A DNA stretch of 52,027 nt from Eubacteriales bacterium (GCA_045636205.1 JAZTXE010000042.1:1-52027), one strand, 5' to 3'; counted from the first letter of the stretch, positions 6,870-51,959 are shown. Program-made: numbers and translations. Notes: generated from the letters alone by a model not told the origin.

Positions 6870-7121
6870 TCCTCCTTAATACGTACGTGAACTTAGTCTG
6901 CGTACGGCGGAAAACTCCACACAACTCCGCCGCGCGTTTCATGCTTACCCATGATAAAAACCGGACTCAGCGAAGGGGACGCTACCATCCGGCTACAACT
7001 GCACGCGCAACAGCTAATGCAAGTTCTCCAGCCGCCCGATTGTCGGACATACTCCACAGAAGTTACCTGCCTTTTAAGCAGCAATCTCCTGTTTCATCGC
7101 ATACTACGCCCATACAGGCGC
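6870..7121 (-). ncRNA. Structured 5' leader of the S10 operon (putative ribosomal protein autoregulatory leader, contains a K-turn)
   Basis: About 260 nt untranslated, GC-rich, between the promoter and rpsJ, with several hairpins (e.g. CGGCGGAG...TTCCGCCG); K-turn pattern at 7049-7102. Confidence 0.7.
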
Positions 7122-11070: not shown

Positions 11071-11144
11071 GCAGGTGTAGTTCAATGGTAGAACTTCAGC
11101 TTCCCAAGCTGATAACGTGGGTTCGATTCCCATCACCTGCTCCA
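11071..11144 (+). tRNA. tRNA-Gly(CCC)
   Basis: GCAGGTG/CACCTGC acceptor stem, anticodon arm TCAGC-TTCCCAA-GCTGA, GTTCGATTCC T-loop, encoded CCA. Confidence 0.97.
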
Positions 11145-26011: not shown

Positions 26012-26899
26012 TTACAAGTCTACGCCTAAGAATTTCTTTGCTGCGATACCTACAAAGAATGATACGACTGCAACGCCGAGGCTTATAAGTGCCATTTCAA
26101 GAAATCTCTTTTTAAACGGTTGGTCTTGTGCCACGGATGTGTAATATGTAAAGCCTGCAATGATTAGAATTACAACAAAAATCATGCAAATAAGCGCGGG
26201 GATGTACTGATCTGACGGGAAAATCAGATACGGCGCAATAAGCGCAATCACGGTTATAAGATACGCGATACCGGTATACGAACAGGATTTCAAAGCGTCG
26301 CTTCTTCCCTCGCTTCGAGCCGCTAAAAACTCGCTTGACGCCATGGAAAAAGTAGCGGATATTCCGACTATGAGACCTGATAGTGCAATAAGGCTTGTAT
26401 TCTGAAGAGCAAGTGCAAATCCGGCGAGGCTGCCGGTGAGTTCTACAAGCGCATCATTGAGTCCTAACACCATGCTTCCGACATAGCGCAAACTCTCTTC
26501 ATCGAGCATTCCGAGAAGTGCACTCTCATGCTCCTCCTCCTGCTGCCTTATTGTGACACTTTCGGGAATTTCATTTTTTAGTTTATCGTAAACATCCTGA
26601 GCATTTTCTTCGCCACGCTCCATAAGCTTTACCGCGAATGTAAAACCCAGCAGCCGTGCAATCATAGTATACTTAAACACTTTAAACTTCTCGGGTTTTA
26701 CATCTGCGCCCGTGTATTTCTTCCACACCTCGCAGTGTGCCTTTTCTTCCCTTGAAAGTCTTAAGAGAGTATCTTTGTTTTCTTCGCCTTTTGCAAAGCG
26801 GGATATTTTTTCGTAAATCACGCTCTCCGTCATTTCGCCCTGCTGCATTTTCTTAATAATTTTAAGCGATTCCTTTGATATATTACTTGCGCTCATCAT
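26012..26899 (-). CDS. Ferritin/rubrerythrin-like domain fused to a VIT1/CCC1 transporter (MbfA-like metal exporter)
   Basis: N-terminal E..E..H motifs (EEKAH, EEEHE); VLGLNDALVE and SMASSEFL VIT1 motifs; start at 26899 behind AGGAGGA. Confidence 0.85.
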   Translation of the reverse strand: MMSASNISKESLKIIKKMQQGEMTESVIYEKISRFAKGEENKDTLLRLSREEKAHCEVWKKYTGADVKPEKFKVFKYTMIARLLGFTFAVKLMERGEENAQDVYDKLKNEIPESVTIRQQEEEHESALLGMLDEESLRYVGSMVLGLNDALVELTGSLAGFALALQNTSLIALSGLIVGISATFSMASSEFLAARSEGRSDALKSCSYTGIAYLITVIALIAPYLIFPSDQYIPALICMIFVVILIIAGFTYYTSVAQDQPFKKRFLEMALISLGVAVVSFFVGIAAKKFLGVDL

Positions 26900-26930
26900 A
26901 TCTTCCTCCTGCGTTTTTATTCTACGCATC

Positions 26931-26959
26931 ATTATACTATCAATCACCTTATCAGTCAA
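26931..26959 (-). promoter_or_regulatory. Sigma-A promoter for the VIT1 gene, overlapping the trxB stop
   Basis: TTGACT-N17-TATAAT. Confidence 0.75.
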
Positions 26960-27875
26960 TTTCTTCCATATATTTTTCTGCAAAGTATGCAGCCGTCGCA
27001 CCGTCAGCCACTGCGGTTACTATCTGACGTATCGGCTTTGTCCGTACATCCCCCGCGGCAAAAACGCCTGCCTGTGATGTTTTAGTCGTCTCATCCGCTA
27101 TGACATATCCGTTTTTATCAATCTCCAGTTTATCGCGCACAAGCTCGGTTTTAGGGACTCTTCCTATACTTATAAAAACACCCTGCACAGTAATTTCTTT
27201 TTCCGCACCGTCAAGCGAATTTCTTACCATTACACCCCTAACCGCATCGTTTGATAAAATTTTACAGACAGTACTGTTCCATTCAAATTCCACATTCTGT
27301 GCACTCAGCAAAGGTTTAAGATATGCGCGCTCTGCCCTTAGCTTATCCCTGCGGTGTACGATAATAACCTTTTTGCAAATTTTAGAAAGCAAAAGCGCAT
27401 CTGCGGCTGCTGAGTTTCCCCCGCCTATGACAACCACGGTTTTATCTTTATAAAGCATACCGTCGCAAGCTGCACAGTATCCTACGCCTCTGCCTATTAG
27501 TGCCTGTTCGTTTTCAAGCCCAAGGTGCTTGTGCTCGGCACCGGTTGCAATAATTACACTGCGCGCTAAAAGCTCTTTATCGCCGATACTGATTCTTTTA
27601 ATTTTGTCTTTAAACTCCACGTTTGTAACCTCTGCTTGCACGGTTTTTGCACCAAAGCGTTCTGCACCCTGCTGCATTTTCATGCCAAGTGTAAATCCGT
27701 CTACACCGTTATCAAAACCAGGGTAATTATCTATTTGCGTAGTTTGAATCATTTGCCCGCCCGAGGAAAGCTTTTCGATTACAAGCGTATCAAATCCCGC
27801 TCTTGATGAATAAATCGCCGAGGTATATCCTGCAGGACCGCCACCTATTATAATTACGTCGTGTACTTTTTCCAT
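26952..27875 (-). CDS. trxB: Thioredoxin-disulfide reductase
   Basis: GGGPAG, NYPGF, YCAACDG (CxxC), GGGNSA, HRRD, FAAGDVR; start at 27875 behind AAGGAG. Confidence 0.95.
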   Translation of the reverse strand: MEKVHDVIIIGGGPAGYTSAIYSSRAGFDTLVIEKLSSGGQMIQTTQIDNYPGFDNGVDGFTLGMKMQQGAERFGAKTVQAEVTNVEFKDKIKRISIGDKELLARSVIIATGAEHKHLGLENEQALIGRGVGYCAACDGMLYKDKTVVVIGGGNSAAADALLLSKICKKVIIVHRRDKLRAERAYLKPLLSAQNVEFEWNSTVCKILSNDAVRGVMVRNSLDGAEKEITVQGVFISIGRVPKTELVRDKLEIDKNGYVIADETTKTSQAGVFAAGDVRTKPIRQIVTAVADGATAAYFAEKYMEEID

Positions 27876-27936
27876 AACGCTTCTCCTTGTCACACTTAGT
27901 CCCATGCAGTATCCCCTGCTTTAAAGACATATATGC

Positions 27937-27977
27937 AAACGAGAGGTTCCCGTAAGCTCAAGAACCTCTCGTTTTTT
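27937..27977. terminator. Hairpin terminator downstream of the acyl-CoA synthetase
   Basis: AAACGAGAGGTTC...GAACCTCTCGTTT. Confidence 0.7.
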
Positions 27978-27981
27978 GATA

Positions 27982-30282
27982 TTATTTATTCATATTTTCC
28001 ATATCATTTTTGCGGATTTCAACACGCCTTACCTTGCCGCTGATTGTTTTTGGAAGTTCATCGACAAACTCGACAATTCGCGGATACTTGTAGGGTGCAG
28101 TATGTGTTTTTACATACTCCTGAATTTCCTTTTTAAGCTCGTCTGTCCCATTCGTTCCTTTTACAAGAACAATGGTTGCCTTTACAATCTGACCGCGAAC
28201 CTCATCGGGAACCGGAGTGATTGCACATTCGAGTACATACGGAAGCTCCATGATAACGCTTTCAATCTCAAACGGTCCGATACGGTAGCCGGAGGACTTA
28301 ATAACATCGTCAATACGTCCTACATACCAGAGATAACCGTCTTCATCCATTGTTGCCTGGTCACCGGTATGATAGTATCCGTCATGCCATACTTCTTTGG
28401 TTTTCTCTTCATCAAGATAATAACCGATAAAGAGTCCGCACGGAACCTCGTCCTTTGTACGGATGCAGATTTCGCCGGCATCTCCGGTTTTGCACTCGTT
28501 ACCGTCCGGGTCTAAAACAACTACATCGTAGAGCGGGCTGGGTCTTCCCATGGAACCGATTTTAGGAGTAGAGCCTACAAAGTTTGCTATAGAGAGTGTG
28601 GTTTCGGTCTGACCAAAGCCTTCCATGATTGTAAGCCCGGTTGCTTTCTTGAACTGATTGAACACTTCGGGGTTTAATGCCTCACCCGCGGTCGTCGCAT
28701 ACTCAATAGAAGAAAGGTCATACTTTGACAAATCTTCCTTGATGAAGAAACGGTACATTGTAGGCGGTGCGCAGAATGTTGTGATATGATATTTTGCAAA
28801 CATCGGCAAAATATCTTCCGAATGGAATCTGTCAAAGTCGTATGTGAACTGCGCTGCTTCGCAGAGCCACTGTCCGTAGAGTTTACCCCAAAGAGCTTTA
28901 CCCCAACCCGTATCGGAGATTGTAAAGTGGAGACCGTCCGGATTTACATTGTGCCAATGCTTTGCGGTTGGGTAGTGACCGAGCGCATATTTATACGAGT
29001 GTGTTGCGATACGCGGATAGCCGGTTGTACCGGAAGTAAAGAGCATAAGCATCGGATCGTTACCGCAAGGTGTGTTTTCTGTGCGGTCAAAGCGCGTGCT
29101 GAAGCGCTCCATTTCAACATTGAAATCGTGCCAACCTTCTTTATTACCGCCAACCAATACTTTTATCATATCCGGGAATTCTGCAGCAGCCTTTTCAGCC
29201 TCAACAGATACATCGCCATCCGCGGTGCACACAATGGCTTTTACTTTTGCAGCTTTGTATCTGTAAGTAAAATCGTGCTCTACAAGCTGATTGGTTGCAG
29301 GGATTGCGATAGCACCTATTTTATGAAGTGCAAGCATACAGAACCAGAACTGGTAATGGCGCTTCAATACAAGCATTACTGTATCACCCTTTTTGATACC
29401 GAGTGATTCAAAATAGTTTGCAGTCTTTGCTGAATACTTTTTCATATCACTGAAGGTGAAGCGTCGGTCTGTTTTATCATTTGCAACCCACATCATAGCC
29501 AGCTTATCCGGATTCTTTTCGGCGATAGCATCAACGCAGTCATACGCAAAGTTAAACGAATCTGCATTTTTGAATTTGATGCCGCTGAATATGCCGTTTT
29601 CGTCATAAGATGATTCGATGAATTTATCAGCAACGGTTTCAGGTTTTGCTTTCTGCTCAGCAGTCTTAGCTGCGATATGCGGTGCTTCCGGGTACTCATC
29701 ACTTACCTGACCGTCATGCGGATTTAAAACAACCGCATGGAATTCGCAGCCGCCCTCACCCGCTGCAATCATGCCATGAGGGATTGTGCTGTTATAGAAA
29801 ATGGAGTCGCCCTCGTTTAAGACATCCACATGGTTTCCTACCTGGACCTTGAGAGAGCCTTTGAGGATAACATCAAATTCCTGGCCCTTGTGCGAAGCTA
29901 ACTTGATAGGCTGGTTCTGTTCTTCTTCAATATACGGAAATTTAACTAAAAAGGGTTCTGCGAGTTTCTCTCTGAATTTAGGAGCAAGGTTATTGTATTC
30001 TACCCCGTGCTTCTTTACAATCTTAAGGCCTTCGCCTTTTCTAATAATTTCAAACGATTTTAATGTTGAGCTTGTTCCTTCAAGCAAATCTACAACTTCA
30101 ACATCGCAAGCCTTTGCACATTTATAGATAAATGTGAAGCTGAAGTCTGTGTCGCCTTCTTCCAAAATCTTATAGTCCTCAACTGATACTCCCGTAAGCT
30201 TTGCAAGTTCTTCAGGTGAATAGCCTTTTGCTTCGCGCAGACCTTTGATTCTGCCCGCAACTTCCTTCAAACTGTACTCCAT
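27982..30282 (-). CDS. XRE-HTH/cupin regulator domain fused to a short/medium-chain acyl-CoA synthetase
   Basis: N-terminal RIKGLREAKGYSPEELA HTH and HKGQEF...GDSIFYNSTIPHGM cupin; FTSGTTGYP, GFGQTET, YHTGD, KSSGYRIGPFEIE, LPKTISGK adenylation motifs. Confidence 0.92.
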   Translation of the reverse strand: MEYSLKEVAGRIKGLREAKGYSPEELAKLTGVSVEDYKILEEGDTDFSFTFIYKCAKACDVEVVDLLEGTSSTLKSFEIIRKGEGLKIVKKHGVEYNNLAPKFREKLAEPFLVKFPYIEEEQNQPIKLASHKGQEFDVILKGSLKVQVGNHVDVLNEGDSIFYNSTIPHGMIAAGEGGCEFHAVVLNPHDGQVSDEYPEAPHIAAKTAEQKAKPETVADKFIESSYDENGIFSGIKFKNADSFNFAYDCVDAIAEKNPDKLAMMWVANDKTDRRFTFSDMKKYSAKTANYFESLGIKKGDTVMLVLKRHYQFWFCMLALHKIGAIAIPATNQLVEHDFTYRYKAAKVKAIVCTADGDVSVEAEKAAAEFPDMIKVLVGGNKEGWHDFNVEMERFSTRFDRTENTPCGNDPMLMLFTSGTTGYPRIATHSYKYALGHYPTAKHWHNVNPDGLHFTISDTGWGKALWGKLYGQWLCEAAQFTYDFDRFHSEDILPMFAKYHITTFCAPPTMYRFFIKEDLSKYDLSSIEYATTAGEALNPEVFNQFKKATGLTIMEGFGQTETTLSIANFVGSTPKIGSMGRPSPLYDVVVLDPDGNECKTGDAGEICIRTKDEVPCGLFIGYYLDEEKTKEVWHDGYYHTGDQATMDEDGYLWYVGRIDDVIKSSGYRIGPFEIESVIMELPYVLECAITPVPDEVRGQIVKATIVLVKGTNGTDELKKEIQEYVKTHTAPYKYPRIVEFVDELPKTISGKVRRVEIRKNDMENMNK

Positions 30283-30342
30283 TGTTTTGTCTCCTTTCAT
30301 TTTCGCCAACTAAATTAAGATTGTTACGAATTTGAATAAAAC

Positions 30343-30612
30343 AAAAAACTCGTCTCAAAAGAAACTTTTGAGACGAGTTAATAAACCCGCGGTACCACTC
30401 AAATTACGGAAGATAAATTCCGTCACTTTCCAAACTCTAACAAGTCTTTTGCCTTTACGCAGCAATACGGAAGGAGTCTACTCGGCTTTGCCTTTCGATC
30501 CTCCGACTCGGAGGTGATGGGTCATTGGAAAGTTCCGCCATTGCCTCGCACCACCCGGCAACTCTCTCAAGGCTTCACAATCCGACCGTCCTCGTCACAG
30601 TCGTTCTTTGTG
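30343..30612 (-). promoter_or_regulatory. T-box riboswitch, isoleucine specifier (AUC)
   Basis: Stem I GA motif CTGTGA..GAGG/CCTC.GAG, AGAGAG and GGTGCGA distal motifs, specifier ATC-A (30516-30518), T-box GAGTGGTACCGCG (30388-30400), terminator AACTCGTCTCAAAAG...CTTTTGAGACGAGTTTTTT. Confidence 0.9.
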
Positions 30613-30631
30613 ATATTCAAATTTGAAATAA

Positions 30632-30660
30632 ATTATACCCTGCCAAACATAATTTGTCAA
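30632..30660 (-). promoter_or_regulatory. Sigma-A promoter of the Ile T-box transcript
   Basis: Perfect TTGACA-N17-TATAAT. Confidence 0.9.
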
Positions 30661-30683
30661 GAGCTTTTGAAAAAAAGTTCAAA

Positions 30684-33143
30684 TTATTTTTTAAGACCAA
30701 GCTTTTCAGCGGATTCATCGCGCATTTTGTACTTTAATATTTTACCCGCAGCATTCATCGGGAATTCATCTACAAAGATAAAATATCTGGGCACTTTATG
30801 CCTTGCGATTGACGCATTACCGAATTCACGCATTTCATTTTCATCAGCGGTTTCACCCTTATGAAGAATAATCCATGCGCAGCATTCCTCGCCGTATTTT
30901 TCGTCCGGAACGCCGACTACCTGGACATCGCGAACCTTCGGGTTGGTAAGATAAAACTCTTCAATTTCGCGCGGATACAGATTCTCACCGCCGCGGATAA
31001 TCATATCTTTAAGGCGACCTGTAACCTTGTAGTAGCCGTCCGGGGTTCTCATGCAGATGTCACCTGAATGGAGCCATCCGTCAGCATCAATCGCCTGAGC
31101 AGTTGCCTCGGGCATCTTATAGTAGCCTTTCATGATATTAAAGCCGCGCGCGACAAATTCACCGCTTTCGCCGTCAGGGAGTTCATCGCCGGTTTCAGGG
31201 TCGATAATTTTGCATTCAACGCCCGGGAACGCACTGCCGACAGTTTCAACACGGTGATCAAGGTCCTCATTGACTTCGCCCATAGTACATCCGGGTGATG
31301 CTTCGGTCTGACCGTAAACGGAAATAATTTCACGCATATTCATTTCAACGGCTGCACGGCGCATTAAATCCGCCGGACAGTTCGCGCCTGCCATGATGCC
31401 GGTTCTCATATATGAAAAATCGGTTTTTGCAAAATCCGGATGATTAAACATAGCAATGAACATGGTCGGAACACCGTTAAAGCACGTTATTCTCTCATTG
31501 TTGACGCAGGAAAGCGATGACTTTGGAGAAAAGTACGGAATCGGGCAAAGCGTACCACCGTGCGTCATCATAGATGTCATGGAAAGGACCATTCCGAAGC
31601 AGTGGAACATTGGTACCTGAATCATCATGCGGTCAGCTGTTGACAAGTCCATTCTGTCACCAATCGTTTTGCCGTTGTTGACAATATTGCGGTGAGTGAG
31701 CATAACACCTTTCGGGAAACCGGTCGTTCCGGATGTATACTGCATATTACATACGTCGTCGGGTTTAACCAGCGATGCACGTCTGCGAACCTCTTCGCGC
31801 GGAACAAGGGATGAACGCGAAAGCATCTCCTCCCAAGTAAGACATCCCTGCATCGAAAATCCCGCGGTTACAACGTTGCGCAAAAACGGAAGATTTTTAG
31901 AATACAGTGGTTTACCCGGCTCAAGATTTTTAAGCTCCGGGCACAACTCCTCAATTATTTCTTTATAGTTAATATCCTTGCAATACTCAATCATTATAAG
32001 AGTATGGGTATCAGACTGCTTTAACAGATATTCGATTTCATGGATCTTATATGCGGTATTGACAGTTACCAAAACCGCGCCAATTTTCGTGGTTGCCCAG
32101 AAGGTGATAAACCATTGCGGGATGTTAGTCGCCCACACAGCAACGTGGTCACCCGCTTTTACACCGAGCGATATAAGCGCGGCGGCGCATTCATCGACAT
32201 CGCGCCTGAACTGTTCATAAGTTCTCGTATAATCAAGAGTCGGGTATTTAAACGCGTACTGGTCAGGATAATTTTCTACCATTGTATCAAGAACATCAGA
32301 GAATGTTGCATCGATTACATCGTATTTTTTCCACACAAATGTGCCGGTCTTATCCCTGTTATAGTAAGCGTGTTCAAACGATTTCTTCTCACGGTTGAGT
32401 GTTGAGATATAATTTGCAAAATGGGTAAGGACTATATCCGCATCATTAATTTCTTCGTTCCATGCCGCGCATATATATCCTTCATAATTGAGCGATGAAA
32501 GTGCGCCAATAAGCTTTTCAACATCAAGCTCACCTTCGCCAATTAAAACGGTTTTTCCGTCTTTCATATCACCCAGGCGCACATACTTTATATATGCACC
32601 CAAATTTTTGATGGTTGATTCCGCGGTTTCACCTTCGCCGAAATACGTGCCTCTTACGTTCCATGATGCACCTATTGCAGAGGATGAAAAGAAATTGATT
32701 ATGTCAATTACATTTTCCGTGTTTGCAAGATAGCCGACGGTTTCAAGCAAAATATTGACATCGGCTGTTTCCGCTCGTTTTATCGCGGCAGATAGTTTCT
32801 CAGTTAACACATCAAATGAAACCTTATCTTCAATGCGTACAATTATATTGGAAATGCCGGATGCGGCAGCCATATCCACATATTTTACAATTAAATCGGC
32901 AGTTGTTTTTTCACTCTCAACAGAGTCCGGCATGCGCAAAGCCGAGACCGCAAGATTTCTGTTTAAAAGCTTTCTCTTAGCGTCGGCTACACGGTCACGC
33001 CTCAATATACTATCGTGATGAAAGCTTCGCTCCTTTATGGCATCATATATTTCAAAGCCTTCAAATCCGTAATCAAAGGCATAACGGCAGGTATCAAGAA
33101 ATGAAGCACGGCTTACATTCTTGGTTGAAAATACTATTTTCAT
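30684..33143 (-). CDS. Degenerate xylose-isomerase-like TIM barrel fused to an AMP-dependent acyl-CoA synthetase
   Basis: N-terminal ~250 aa with AP_endonuc_2-like pattern; YTSGTTGFPKG, YGQTE, WLHSGD, RLKDMIIRGGEN, NAAGKILK; ATG at 33143, one base after the upstream stop. Confidence 0.9.
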   Translation of the reverse strand: MKIVFSTKNVSRASFLDTCRYAFDYGFEGFEIYDAIKERSFHHDSILRRDRVADAKRKLLNRNLAVSALRMPDSVESEKTTADLIVKYVDMAAASGISNIIVRIEDKVSFDVLTEKLSAAIKRAETADVNILLETVGYLANTENVIDIINFFSSSAIGASWNVRGTYFGEGETAESTIKNLGAYIKYVRLGDMKDGKTVLIGEGELDVEKLIGALSSLNYEGYICAAWNEEINDADIVLTHFANYISTLNREKKSFEHAYYNRDKTGTFVWKKYDVIDATFSDVLDTMVENYPDQYAFKYPTLDYTRTYEQFRRDVDECAAALISLGVKAGDHVAVWATNIPQWFITFWATTKIGAVLVTVNTAYKIHEIEYLLKQSDTHTLIMIEYCKDINYKEIIEELCPELKNLEPGKPLYSKNLPFLRNVVTAGFSMQGCLTWEEMLSRSSLVPREEVRRRASLVKPDDVCNMQYTSGTTGFPKGVMLTHRNIVNNGKTIGDRMDLSTADRMMIQVPMFHCFGMVLSMTSMMTHGGTLCPIPYFSPKSSLSCVNNERITCFNGVPTMFIAMFNHPDFAKTDFSYMRTGIMAGANCPADLMRRAAVEMNMREIISVYGQTEASPGCTMGEVNEDLDHRVETVGSAFPGVECKIIDPETGDELPDGESGEFVARGFNIMKGYYKMPEATAQAIDADGWLHSGDICMRTPDGYYKVTGRLKDMIIRGGENLYPREIEEFYLTNPKVRDVQVVGVPDEKYGEECCAWIILHKGETADENEMREFGNASIARHKVPRYFIFVDEFPMNAAGKILKYKMRDESAEKLGLKK

Positions 33144-33144
33144 A

Positions 33145-34533
33145 TTATGCCTCCTCAAATACGATTTTGTTAAGTGCGTTAATATATGCTCTTATGCTTG
33201 CTGCAACAATATCGGTGGATGTCCCGTTGCCGGAATAGAGCTTTCCGTTATTGCGAAGACGTACAAGAGCTGAGCCTAACGCTTCCTTTCCCTCAGTTAC
33301 AGATTGAACCTGAAAATCATCAAGCTCATAATGATGACCTATGCACTGTTCTATAGCGCGGAATGCAGCATCAATAGGACCGTCTCCGTTGCTTACGCCG
33401 CACATAATTTCGTCATTGCACTTTAACGTAACCTGCGACATGGAGTTTGTGACATTGCTGCTGGTTGTTGTATAGGTCTCAAAATGGTATGTTGAAGGTG
33501 CCTGCATTGCTGAGCTTGCGATAAGTGCTTCAAATTCCTTTGCGCCGACTGCGCCCTTCTTTTCACACACCTGCATGAGTGCTTTATATACATTTCCTAT
33601 ATCCGAATCAGAGAGCTCGTATCCTAAAACTTCTGCTGCCTGAGTAATCTGAGACATTGAAGAGTCCGAATCGAGTAAAATCTTTTTCTTTTCACTTATT
33701 GTTTTTTCGGATTCGTAGCTTTCGTGATTGATGTTTGAGAGCATATCGTCAATACTTGAATGTATTTTTGTAGTATCCAGTTTAATTTCTGCATCTATTC
33801 TGGCTCCGCAAACTGTTATGGCATCGCAGATTTCTCCGGCTAAAAGAACATCCTCGCCCGCCATAGCACATTTCAAGCCATCTGCACCTTTTGAAATTGA
33901 AGCAAAGGCAGATGCAACGCCCATGTTTATACGGTCAGAAACCTGAACGTATACAGGAACGCTTACAACGCCTTTAATCTTTGCAACAAGCTCTGCAATT
34001 TCATCCGGAGTTGATGCTCCTGCATTGTCGCATATGGTAATGATGCCCGCTCCGCTTTCTTCGGCTTCTTTTGCGGCAGCTATAAGGAACTCTGCATCCG
34101 CTCTTGTCGCATCAAGTGCAGAAAACTCAACGTCATCACAATACATCTTTGCTTCTTTTACAAGCTCTGCAATTTTCTCAAGCATCGCGGTCTGTTTGAT
34201 GTGGTACATATACTCCATCTGGAGCGTTGATACGGGAAGCTCAATCTGAAGGCGCGGGTTCTTTGCATCCTTAACGCATTCCCATACAGATGCGACATCT
34301 TCTTTGTTAAATCCGACCGGAATAGCAAGGGCTGCATTCTGAGCATTCTGCGCAATAGTTTTATATATAATCGTATCCTCACGAAGGTTTTTAACAGCAG
34401 GCAGCTCGACAGTATCTGCGCCGAGTACATCTGCACAATTTGCTATCGCTGACTTTTCACGGAAGAGCAGTGAAATTCCACGGTCCTCTGAAAGTTTTTT
34501 AAGTGTAATATCTGCAATGTTTATTTTTCTCAT
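33145..34533 (-). CDS. LeuA (2-isopropylmalate synthase) paralog with a degenerate catalytic domain and an intact regulatory domain
   Basis: VEFSALDATR barrel remnant; GDGPIDAAFRAI and TDIVAASIRAYINALN regulatory domain; RDGEQ and HxH motifs missing; start at 34533 behind AAGGAG. Confidence 0.85.
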   Translation of the reverse strand: MRKINIADITLKKLSEDRGISLLFREKSAIANCADVLGADTVELPAVKNLREDTIIYKTIAQNAQNAALAIPVGFNKEDVASVWECVKDAKNPRLQIELPVSTLQMEYMYHIKQTAMLEKIAELVKEAKMYCDDVEFSALDATRADAEFLIAAAKEAEESGAGIITICDNAGASTPDEIAELVAKIKGVVSVPVYVQVSDRINMGVASAFASISKGADGLKCAMAGEDVLLAGEICDAITVCGARIDAEIKLDTTKIHSSIDDMLSNINHESYESEKTISEKKKILLDSDSSMSQITQAAEVLGYELSDSDIGNVYKALMQVCEKKGAVGAKEFEALIASSAMQAPSTYHFETYTTTSSNVTNSMSQVTLKCNDEIMCGVSNGDGPIDAAFRAIEQCIGHHYELDDFQVQSVTEGKEALGSALVRLRNNGKLYSGNGTSTDIVAASIRAYINALNKIVFEEA

Positions 34534-34584
34534 TTTGGGAAAACTCCTTTCAAATTCGAACATATAACAATCGGATTTTTTCAA

Positions 34585-34857
34585 CAAAAAAACGCTCCCG
34601 TCTCTCTGCTGATTTAAAGAGACGAAAACGTTAAAACTCTTTGTTTCCGCGGTACCACTCTTCTTCATCCGATAAAGGATGCCCTTTAGATGCCAACACA
34701 TCCGAACTCTGTCACGGGAGTTCCCGTCTGCCACTACTGCAACTTTCATGGCAACCGCTCCGCGGTGAGTTCAGCAAAACTCTCCCGATACCTCGCACCG
34801 ACCGGTATCTCTCTTAAGGTGAAAGTTTTACATACTATTCCGCATCACAGCGTTTGA
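34585..34857 (-). promoter_or_regulatory. T-box riboswitch, leucine specifier (CUC)
   Basis: GCTGTGATGCGG/CCGCGGAGC stem I base, AGAGAG and GGTGCGA, specifier GAA-CTC-A (34767-34769), stem II AGTAG and IIA/B CCCGT, T-box AAGAGTGGTACCGCG (34648-34662), terminator with U-tract. Confidence 0.93.
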
Positions 34858-34868
34858 ATTTGGAATAA

Positions 34869-34897
34869 ATTATAGCACCTATTTTTAAACTTGTCAA
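34869..34897 (-). promoter_or_regulatory. Sigma-A promoter of the Leu T-box transcript
   Basis: TTGACA-N17-TATAAT with extended TG. Confidence 0.9.
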
Positions 34898-34936
34898 GCT
34901 TTTTCTGCAATTTTTAGTTTAAAGCATGCAGAAGAC

Positions 34937-34963
34937 AAGGGTTCGGAATACTCCGAACCCTTT
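34937..34963 (-). terminator. Terminator of perR-rubrerythrin
   Basis: AAGGGTTCGGA...TCCGAACCCTT hairpin. Confidence 0.75.
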
Positions 34964-34979
34964 ATAACTGAATATTTTA

Positions 34980-35525
34980 TTATTTAAAATATCTCTTTAA
35001 AAGTCCTTCAAATGCTCTGCCATGGCGTGCTTCGTCCTTTGCCATTTCATGGACGGTATCATGGATTGCATCCAAGTTAAGAGCTTTTGCTTTTTTCGCA
35101 AGCTCAAACTTACCTGCTGTTGCACCATTCTCCGCATCAATGCGAAGCTCAAGATTTTTCTTGGTGCTGTCAGTAATAACTTCGCCGAGGAGTTCAGCAA
35201 ATTTTGCTGCGTGCTCAGCTTCTTCCCAAGCTGCCTTTTCCCAATACAGACCGATTTCCGGATAGCCTTCGCGGTGAGCAACACGAGCCATTGCAAGGTA
35301 CATACCGACCTCTGTGCACTCGCCGTTGAAGTTCATGCGCAGACCTTCAATGATTTCAGGATCCACACCCTGCGCAACGCCTACGCGATGCTCATCTGCA
35401 TATGCACGCTCACCCTGAGCCTGTTCAATGAACTTTGCCTTTGGTGCATTGCACTGCGGGCAGGAGTCCGGTGCATCATTACCCTCGTGAACATATCCGC
35501 AAATCTGACATACATACTTTTTCAT
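34980..35525 (-). CDS. Reverse rubrerythrin (NADH peroxidase)
   Basis: N-terminal rubredoxin CQICG...CPQC; di-iron EEAEHA and DEARHG. Confidence 0.93.
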
Positions 35526-35605
35526 TTTTGTTTCCTCCATATAATAAATAATTTTTATTTTTTTAATAGCTCTGCATTACAGCGCTATAATAAACATATT
35601 TTCTG

Positions 35606-51883: not shown

Positions 51884-51959
51884 TGGGGCTGTTACCCGGA
51901 TTTGAACCGGGGTCCTCATCCTTACCAAGGATGCGCTCTACCGACTGAGCTATAACAGC
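51884..51959 (-). tRNA. tRNA-Thr(GGT)
   Basis: GCTGTTA/TAACAGC acceptor, CATCC-TTGGTAA-GGATG anticodon arm, GGTTCAAATCC, encoded CCA. Confidence 0.97.

Follow-up and report, generated by a model that had tools for sequence, protein, structure and literature searches.

The de novo ilv-leu genes of Bacillota are under T-box control. Rumen and gut anaerobes have long been known to need branched-chain volatile fatty acids, which are fed to dairy cattle, and rumen bacteria convert isovalerate, 2-methylbutyrate and isobutyrate to leucine, isoleucine and valine by reductive carboxylation. In the literature searched, the genes starting this conversion are not pinned down, and the acid-activation step is not assigned to the genes described here. 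The present analysis concerns a cassette at positions 27982–34897 of a 52,027-nucleotide stretch of DNA from a Eubacteriales bacterium (GCA_045636205.1, JAZTXE010000042.1:1-52027; the whole stretch is called the window), which is contig C42 of a metagenome-assembled genome (MAG) of 1.82 Mb in 121 contigs, 94% complete. As judged from its sequence and that of its relatives, the cassette very probably comprises two amino-acid-specific salvage switches, whose acyl-CoA ligases would feed the resynthesis of leucine and isoleucine from branched acids.

Among described ligases, MacsMa of Methanosarcina acetivorans prefers 2-methylbutyrate according to the accessible part of PMC10455477, while MbcS of Staphylococcus aureus, according to the corresponding part of PMC10026030, acts selectively on 2-methylbutyrate and isobutyrate and poorly on isovalerate. 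Expression of mbcS goes up with a fall in CodY activity, a change that the authors connect to limitation for branched-chain amino acids (PMC13584741, accessible part). HisZ, as presented in the accessible part of PMC9734150, is an inactive paralogue serving as the allosteric subunit of ATP phosphoribosyltransferase. A full-text literature search, with most subscription journals outside its coverage, returned no paper connecting T-boxes with acyl-CoA ligases or branched acids and none on an inactive LeuA paralogue. Acyl-CoA ligases would be a new class of T-box-controlled gene.

Two T-box-controlled transcription units

The cassette lies wholly on the minus strand and consists of two transcription units, each with a promoter, a T-box leader and a terminator (Table 1). 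The first-pass annotation of this DNA had described two tandem units, each with a consensus promoter and a T-box, which drive a LeuA-like gene with a TIM-barrel/ligase and an XRE-cupin/ligase, respectively; this layout holds in the promoter scan and the Rfam RF00230 alignments, and the gene content is confirmed by Pfam. Both leaders contain a specifier followed by a purine (CUC-A and AUC-A), the GUGGUACCGCG T-box bulge and a terminator. Read at the specifier positions of the RF00230 model alignments, the triplets are GAA-CUC-A in T-box 1 and CCC-AUC-A in T-box 2, the same leucine and isoleucine codons as had been called by the annotation. T-box 1 is above the RF00230 gathering score of 93 bits, whereas T-box 2 was picked up by a targeted search. 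The scan for promoter- and terminator-like sites covered positions 26800–35100, where the two unit promoters are the only 12/12 sigma-70 sites (TTGACA-17-TATAAT) and two of the five terminator-like sites are the T-box terminators. A tRNA-Leu(GAG) gene is encoded in the same genome.

Table 1. Features of the two-unit cassette, in window coordinates
Feature	Position	Strand	Description
Promoter, unit 1	34869..34897	-	TTGACA, 17 nt, TATAAT, TG before the -10 box; 12/12 consensus
T-box leader 1, specifier CUC (Leu)	34615..34857	-	RF00230, 131.5 bits, E 4.8e-29, model 1-219
Intrinsic terminator, T-box 1	34591..34632	-	17-pair stem, then T run
Pseudo-LeuA (P0001), 462 aa	33145..34533	-	HMGL-like TIM barrel and LeuA_dimer (Pfam)
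TIM-barrel::acyl-CoA synthetase (P0002), 819 aa	30684..33143	-	Proposed isovalerate-CoA ligase (domains by Pfam)
Promoter, unit 2	30632..30660	-	TTGACA, 17 nt, TATAAT; 12/12 consensus
Conserved AATTTGAATATC element	30612..30623	-	Between the -10 box and T-box 2
T-box leader 2, specifier AUC (Ile)	30366..30607	-	RF00230, 91.9 bits, E 1.2e-20, full model 1-219
Intrinsic terminator, T-box 2	30347..30379	-	15-pair stem, then T run
HTH_3-Cupin_2::acyl-CoA synthetase (P0003), 766 aa	27982..30282	-	Proposed 2-methylbutyrate-CoA ligase (domains by Pfam)

Conservation of the specifiers

A scan with one genome per species places pseudo-LeuA relatives in at least 317 species genomes, and the best 80 loci were examined closely. 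These are MAGs throughout, labelled Clostridia, Congzhengia, Ructibacterium, Egerieisoma, 'Acutalibacteraceae' and similar, from the gut of water buffalo, sheep, goat, yak, roe deer and water deer where a host is named; the sampled sites given in MAG labels are ruminant and deer colon, caecum or rectum. In these close relatives, a P0002 homologue directly follows P0001 wherever the sequence permits, and a T-box motif stands upstream of pseudo-LeuA in 74 of 76 leaders. The specifier could be called for 68 of the 81 P0001-like frames (7 have too short an upstream sequence, and 6, the window's own included, are uncalled as open reading frame start artefacts), and it is CUC in 67 and CCC in one; one leader in the alignment of relatives reads CUU by eye.

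The same arrangement extends to a distant set of 16 further loci with a pseudo-LeuA identity of 36–68%, where pseudo-LeuA is directly followed by a full-length TIM-barrel ligase in 16/16. Of these, 12 are preceded by a T-box that reaches the gathering score, all with CUC (10 by script, 2 by eye). Among the other four loci, one belongs to a longer T-box operon in which IlvE immediately precedes pseudo-LeuA, another has an oxidoreductase gamma gene upstream at the contig start, and the other two are preceded by T-box-free non-coding DNA, of which only 191 nt is available in one case. The first-pass annotation had made its reading depend on the conservation of the specifiers in homologous loci, which is what both sets display.

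The homologues of the HTH-cupin ligase (n = 43) are preceded by AUC (31), by GUA (7), by uncalled leaders (2) or by too short an upstream sequence (3). In a quick IQ-TREE tree of 39 P0003-like frames of at least 700 aa, three clades are found: two with AUC, of which the window's has 20 rows and the other 10, and one with GUA, which has 100% support (9 rows, including 2 uncalled). Seven relatives carry three side-by-side T-boxes, for leucine, isoleucine and valine; the trio is confirmed by Rfam in L078, L084, L069, L074 and L107 and by motif in L094 and L106. These relatives thus own a Leu/Ile/Val trio, as each locus has three T-boxes, one with a valine (GUA) specifier.

Proposed route and linkage to its downstream enzymes

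By the known mechanism of T-box leaders, uncharged tRNA-Leu(GAG) would cause readthrough of T-box 1 into pseudo-LeuA and the TIM-barrel ligase, and uncharged tRNA-Ile would cause readthrough of T-box 2 into the HTH-cupin ligase. Isovalerate and 2-methylbutyrate are abundant in the gut. The AMP-forming ligases would make CoA thioesters, of isovalerate in the Leu unit and of 2-methylbutyrate in the Ile unit, a VorB-type 2-oxoacid:ferredoxin oxidoreductase (OFOR) would carboxylate these reductively to 4-methyl-2-oxopentanoate and 3-methyl-2-oxopentanoate, and transamination by IlvE would give leucine and isoleucine. The substrates, the carboxylation and the final transamination are the steps that we infer. 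This salvage route would replace the de novo pathway, whose LeuA, LeuCD, IlvC and IlvD are not found in the genome. The central proposal of the annotation, in which the specifiers indicate the amino acids to be made and the ligases supply branched short-chain acids to ferredoxin-dependent 2-oxoacid synthesis, is supported by every in-silico test run.

The genome encodes VorB (553.9 bits; cut-off 399) and IlvE (482.8 bits; cut-off 307), as well as VorB-associated beta and gamma subunits, IorAB and a pyruvate:ferredoxin oxidoreductase (PFOR). P0001 is its sole HMGL-like gene, and a profile search of the genome found no IlvD. No IlvC, LeuB or LeuCD was found in the genome either: the weak KARI_N match is the adenosylhomocysteinase AhcY, the Iso_dh match is Icd-like, and the aconitase match is a PRK11413 hydratase. 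BrnQ and Peripla_BP_6 were likewise not found in it. The presence of VorB and IlvE, together with the missing LeuA and LeuCD, is the genome content to be expected from the proposed salvage. Propionate en route to 2-oxobutyrate, offered by the annotation as a side option for the Ile ligase, is an unlikely route and is rejected, because no match to IlvC or IlvD was obtained.

In an order sample of 101 genomes, 21 (14 family codes) contain a full-length pseudo-LeuA orthologue and are compared with the 80 others. VorB is present in 21/21 cassette genomes vs 51/80 others, and IlvD in 1/21 vs 43/80; beyond pseudo-LeuA itself, none of the 21 has another LeuA-like match. VorB lies within about 5 kb of a P0003-like ligase, on the same strand, in 15 of the 21 cassette genomes and in at least 12 further genomes.

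Several relatives combine the switches and the downstream enzymes in one locus. In the genome G052, which has the window's own family code, the order on one strand is Leu T-box, pseudo-LeuA, TIM-barrel ligase, Ile T-box, ligase, Val T-box, ligase, IlvE (500.9 bits), a 220-aa gene, VorB (571.5 bits), beta and gamma. The order in G004 is Val T-box (100.6 bits, GUA), ligase, a CbiA/ParA-like P-loop gene, VorB, beta, gamma, IlvE, pseudo-LeuA and TIM-barrel ligase. In G020, with overlapping starts, an OFOR gamma gene is followed by pseudo-LeuA, the TIM-barrel ligase and a Glu/Leu/Phe/Val-type amino-acid dehydrogenase, which takes the place of IlvE.

A gene of 220–228 aa precedes vorB, after the Val ligase gene in G004 (L109:3777-4463, minus strand) and after the IlvE gene in G052 (L145:2354-3016, plus strand). 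The G004 copy has a weak match to CbiA/ParA-type P-loop proteins and its G052 counterpart has no NCBIfam match; the gene may encode an Fe-S maturation helper for the oxidoreductase.

The isoleucine-unit ligase

P0003 contains an N-terminal XRE-HTH plus cupin architecture (HTH, helix-turn-helix), with HTH_3 at 29.9 bits (cut-off 23) and Cupin_2 at 38.7 bits (cut-off 27.2), and the two ligase domains PF00501 (197 bits) and PF13193 (78 bits), also above the Pfam cut-offs. Its ligase part matches MacsMa (PDB 3ETC) with 682 bits over 524 residues at about 56% identity, counted from the match line. The best NCBIfam model is MbcS (NF047394), with 454.1 bits under an equivalog cut-off of 850, so that P0003 may be MbcS-like in its working, yet outside the MbcS equivalog. 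The assignment of 2-methylbutyrate to this ligase, which the annotation had derived from the specifier, gains strength from these matches, as P0003 is closest to enzymes with a demonstrated preference for that acid.

The HTH-cupin part gives weak, generic matches in the PDB (1Y9Q, HppE and SinR). On contig C10 of the same genome, an unfused HTH-cupin gene (L012:1714-2256, plus strand) that is 32% identical to P0003 residues 1–185 directly precedes a Macs/MbcS-like ligase gene (L012:2255-3943, plus strand) that is 51% identical to residues 241–762. This ligase is equidistant from the Ile and Val clades, and contig C10 has no match to RF00230. The gene pair suggests that the P0003 fusion arose from a regulator and its target. 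The HTH-cupin module is probably a second, ligand-dependent control with putative DNA binding, and it is plausible that each of the enzymes of the cassette carries such an extra sensory module, which in P0002 would be the TIM barrel.

Within the Ile clade of the window, 24 of 27 leaders carry the AATTTGAATATC element without a mismatch, though the -35/-10 spacer varies; the Leu leaders lack it. The element could be a putative operator for the HTH domain, or merely the 5' end of the leader. The perfect TTCAAATTTGAA palindrome of the window was considered as an operator; its left half is not conserved among the leaders and the AATTTGAATATC part alone is kept, so that the operator stays a candidate.

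The leucine-unit ligase

The P0002 start codon (ATG) lies 1 nt past the pseudo-LeuA stop, with a GAGGAGG ribosome-binding site within the 3' end of the pseudo-LeuA gene, so that the two genes are translationally coupled. Its AMP-binding (PF00501, 319.6 bits) and AMP-binding_C (PF13193, 58.3 bits) domains are above the Pfam cut-offs, and its N-terminal part is a xylose-isomerase-like TIM barrel (PF01261, 51.5 bits; cut-off 31.1). The best NCBIfam model is PRK12583 (680 vs a cut-off of 832) and the best PDB match reaches 268 bits; by these matches P0002 belongs to a different ligase branch from P0003. The substrate preference of MbcS fits this division, in which the Ile and Val clades form one ligase family and the Leu ligase another.

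The AlphaFold model of the TIM part has a pLDDT (predicted local distance difference test) of 88, and Foldseek aligns it to UlaE, YcjR and ketose 3-epimerases with template-modelling (TM) scores of 0.64–0.76 at 8–19% identity. A PDB search with the TIM profile returned weak, generic matches (MJ1311, Art22 and AsbF), and the Atlas look-up of this part gave 'sugar phosphate isomerase/epimerase' clusters at 0.86–0.87, below the meaningful level. On these models the fold matches are generic sugar-epimerase barrels, and the role of the TIM domain is not revealed by them.

The inactive LeuA paralogue

P0001 contains a LeuA_dimer domain (PF08502) at 111.3 bits, far above the cut-off of 24.9, and reaches less than half of every curated LeuA cut-off in NCBIfam (NF002086, 250.1 vs 532; TIGR00973, 220.9 vs 598.7). 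We take the Arg, Asp and Glu of the motif DTTLRDGEQ to be the catalytic residues of LeuA, and the HxH histidines to be its metal ligands. As aligned with the LeuA chains 3EWB and 3RMJ, the first motif is replaced by DITLKKLSE and the second by Q-V-S. Over 32 P0001 orthologues, the catalytic positions vary freely and retain Asp in 0/32, Arg in 3/32 and the two His in 0/32 and 1/32, while 33 of 132 columns are invariant in the regulatory domain vs 13 of 230 in the TIM part. By this comparison P0001 is a conserved, catalytically dead pseudoenzyme and not a pseudogene, because its intact frame is conserved and its regulatory domain kept while the catalytic residues are lost. The term 'pseudo-leuA' of the first-pass annotation is thus apt as regards the loss of catalysis and misleading as regards a broken gene, as the intact 462-aa frame recurs in the species genomes counted above.

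The dead LeuA is probably kept as a leucine-sensing partner of the ligase, as the regulatory domain is its conserved part. A predicted complex of the P0002 TIM domain with pseudo-LeuA has a score of 0.02, which speaks neither for nor against an interaction. In public records the proteins of the cassette go by 'AMP-binding protein', 'hypothetical protein' and 'alpha-isopropylmalate synthase regulatory domain-containing protein'; for the dead LeuA, one source uses '2-isopropylmalate synthase' and others 'hypothetical protein'. With the label '2-isopropylmalate synthase', metabolic reconstructions could wrongly credit such genomes with leucine synthesis.

Alternative explanations and points against the salvage reading

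The true substrates of the ligases might be different carboxylates (straight short-chain, hydroxy or oxo acids, for example, or a product of the TIM barrel), in which case the T-boxes would serve some purpose other than the resynthesis of leucine and isoleucine. The missing characterised homologue close to P0002 would allow this, as would its fused TIM barrel, which resembles sugar epimerases and isomerases at the above TM scores and is unneeded in the proposed pathway. The accessible part of PMC10455477 likewise describes MacsMa as adenylating many C3–C8 acids. This explanation nevertheless appears unlikely, since specifier and ligase clade go together even across deep branches. In addition, the ligase genes recur in the same direction as those for VorB-type OFOR and IlvE, and they anticorrelate with IlvD and LeuA.

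Alternatively, the ligases might supply branched acyl-CoA primers for membrane fatty-acid synthesis during a shortage of branched-chain amino acids, in the manner of S. aureus MbcS, which is the best NCBIfam model for P0003, feeds FabH-primed lipid synthesis according to the accessible part of PMC10026030 and responds to falling CodY activity as described above (PMC13584741). FabH (PF08541), however, was not found in the own genome and is present in 0/21 cassette genomes vs 39/80 others, which weakens this explanation; relatives have their ligase genes in line with a gene for IlvE or for an amino-acid dehydrogenase, neither of them a lipid gene, and separate Leu, Ile and Val specifiers fit a demand for individual amino acids. 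We consider it very improbable. A catabolic cluster, in which amino acids would pass through IlvE and VOR (VorB-type OFOR), both reversible and also used in branched-chain amino acid fermentation, to acyl-CoAs with the ligases reversed for ATP gain, is scarcely credible, because T-boxes activate on amino-acid scarcity, the wrong signal for degradation, and AMP-forming ligases normally run towards the thioester.

Against the salvage of leucine and isoleucine, as preferred here, several observations have to be set. T-box 2 is under the RF00230 gathering score by 1.1 bits; the homologous Ile leaders of relatives score 94.5–114 bits, and T-box 2 is counted as a T-box on its anatomy. The own assembly contains no tRNA-Ile gene to pair with the AUC specifier, probably because of an assembly gap. 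The isovalerate assignment comes entirely from genomic context, as P0002 lacks a characterised close relative. VorB (contig C75) and IlvE (contig C17) of the own genome are away from the cassette, on contigs with no T-box match. The search for absent pathway genes took in LeuA, LeuCD, IlvC and IlvD, with acetohydroxyacid synthase (AHAS) and IlvA outside it, and the absences are limited by the 94% completeness of the MAG. IlvD also occurs in one of the cassette genomes (G015), Macs-like ligases are found in IlvD-positive genomes too, and the kinship among the sampled genomes makes the contrasts between cassette and other genomes non-independent, so that they overstate independence. Finally, no Val-type T-box ligase is found among the T-box matches of the own genome, which must obtain its valine in some other way and hence does not depend on salvage for all of its branched-chain amino acids.

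Other T-box units and neighbouring genes

The genome has 8 T-box matches in total. Apart from the two of the cassette, these precede an aro operon (Phe UUC), serS (Ser UCC), valS (Val GUC), genes cut by contig ends in two cases (Trp UGG and Ile AUC) and, on contig C36 (L009), a symporter with a third ligase. The C36 T-box (C36:15411-15679, minus strand, 105.5 bits) has the specifier loop GAA-UAC-G (Tyr) and drives a sodium:solute symporter (L009:7385-9043, minus strand) and an acyl-CoA ligase (L009:5679-7313, minus strand). Orthologues of this ligase have a T-box motif directly upstream in 8 of 30 loci of relatives, with UAC in 6, UUC (Phe) in 1 and an unclear specifier in 1. With IorAB encoded in the same genome, the C36 unit suggests an arylacetate-to-Tyr/Phe salvage on the same logic. 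A PaaK-like phenylacetate-CoA ligase (L144:1362-2660, plus strand; 512.9 bits vs a cut-off of 646) shares contig C73 with a PFOR gene.

More tentatively, as a possibility on which we would not yet rely, the units may be instances of a general, riboswitch-labelled carboxylate salvage, in which every amino acid that cannot be made is served by a separate acid:CoA ligase under a T-box (Leu, Ile and Val, and Tyr/Phe through the third ligase family and the sodium:solute symporter) with products passing to VOR or the IorAB-type oxidoreductase (IOR). In such a scheme the dead LeuA would be a HisZ-like sensor that feedback-inhibits the isovalerate ligase, and the HTH-cupin ligases would control their own transcription.

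Within the window, a 317-aa frame (26952–27905, minus strand) begins 77 nt past the P0003 stop. The interval holds no terminator-like site, and the frame may be co-transcribed with unit 2; by eye it is thioredoxin-disulfide reductase-like (GGGPAG and CAACDG motifs). Upstream of unit 1 lies a gene (34980–35540, minus strand) that is rubrerythrin-like by eye and is followed by a GC-rich hairpin and then promoter 1. Positions 7040–7105 (minus strand), 11071–11141 (plus strand) and 51887–51959 (minus strand) hold an S10-Clostridia ribosomal-protein leader (50.2 bits) and two tRNA genes.

Significance and comparison with known systems

The specifiers act as built-in labels, by which ligases for isovalerate, 2-methylbutyrate and isobutyrate may be assigned to leucine, isoleucine and valine, respectively. 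They provide testable candidate genes for a large clade of uncultured Clostridia from the hindgut of ruminants and deer, in which pseudo-LeuA has the species range given above and matching protein clusters number in the thousands. Pseudo-LeuA is also a candidate example of a biosynthetic enzyme that may have become a sensor.

P0003 keeps every Trp of the MacsMa stretch TAKxW...GWGK...WGKLYGQW (3ETC chain positions 256–289), within which the critical Trp259 presumably falls, a placement made by inference and not by mapping. Unlike P0003, MacsMa is archaeal and stands alone without an HTH-cupin module, and it has neither a T-box nor an assigned physiological role. MbcS, which provides the top NCBIfam model for P0003, differs in feeding lipid primers, in being controlled by CodY rather than a T-box, and in lacking an N-terminal fusion. 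The ilv-leu T-boxes of Bacillota share with unit 1 a Leu-specifier T-box before a leuA-type gene and the same antitermination logic, whereas here the LeuA is dead and is coupled to an acyl-CoA ligase instead of the isopropylmalate pathway. The proposed pseudo-LeuA role would, by analogy, resemble that of HisZ, in that a dead paralogue from the same amino acid's metabolism would serve as end-product sensor. With the reductive carboxylation of rumen bacteria, the cassette would share the same chemistry, as proposed here, in the same habitat, its relatives being MAGs from the ruminant and deer gut.

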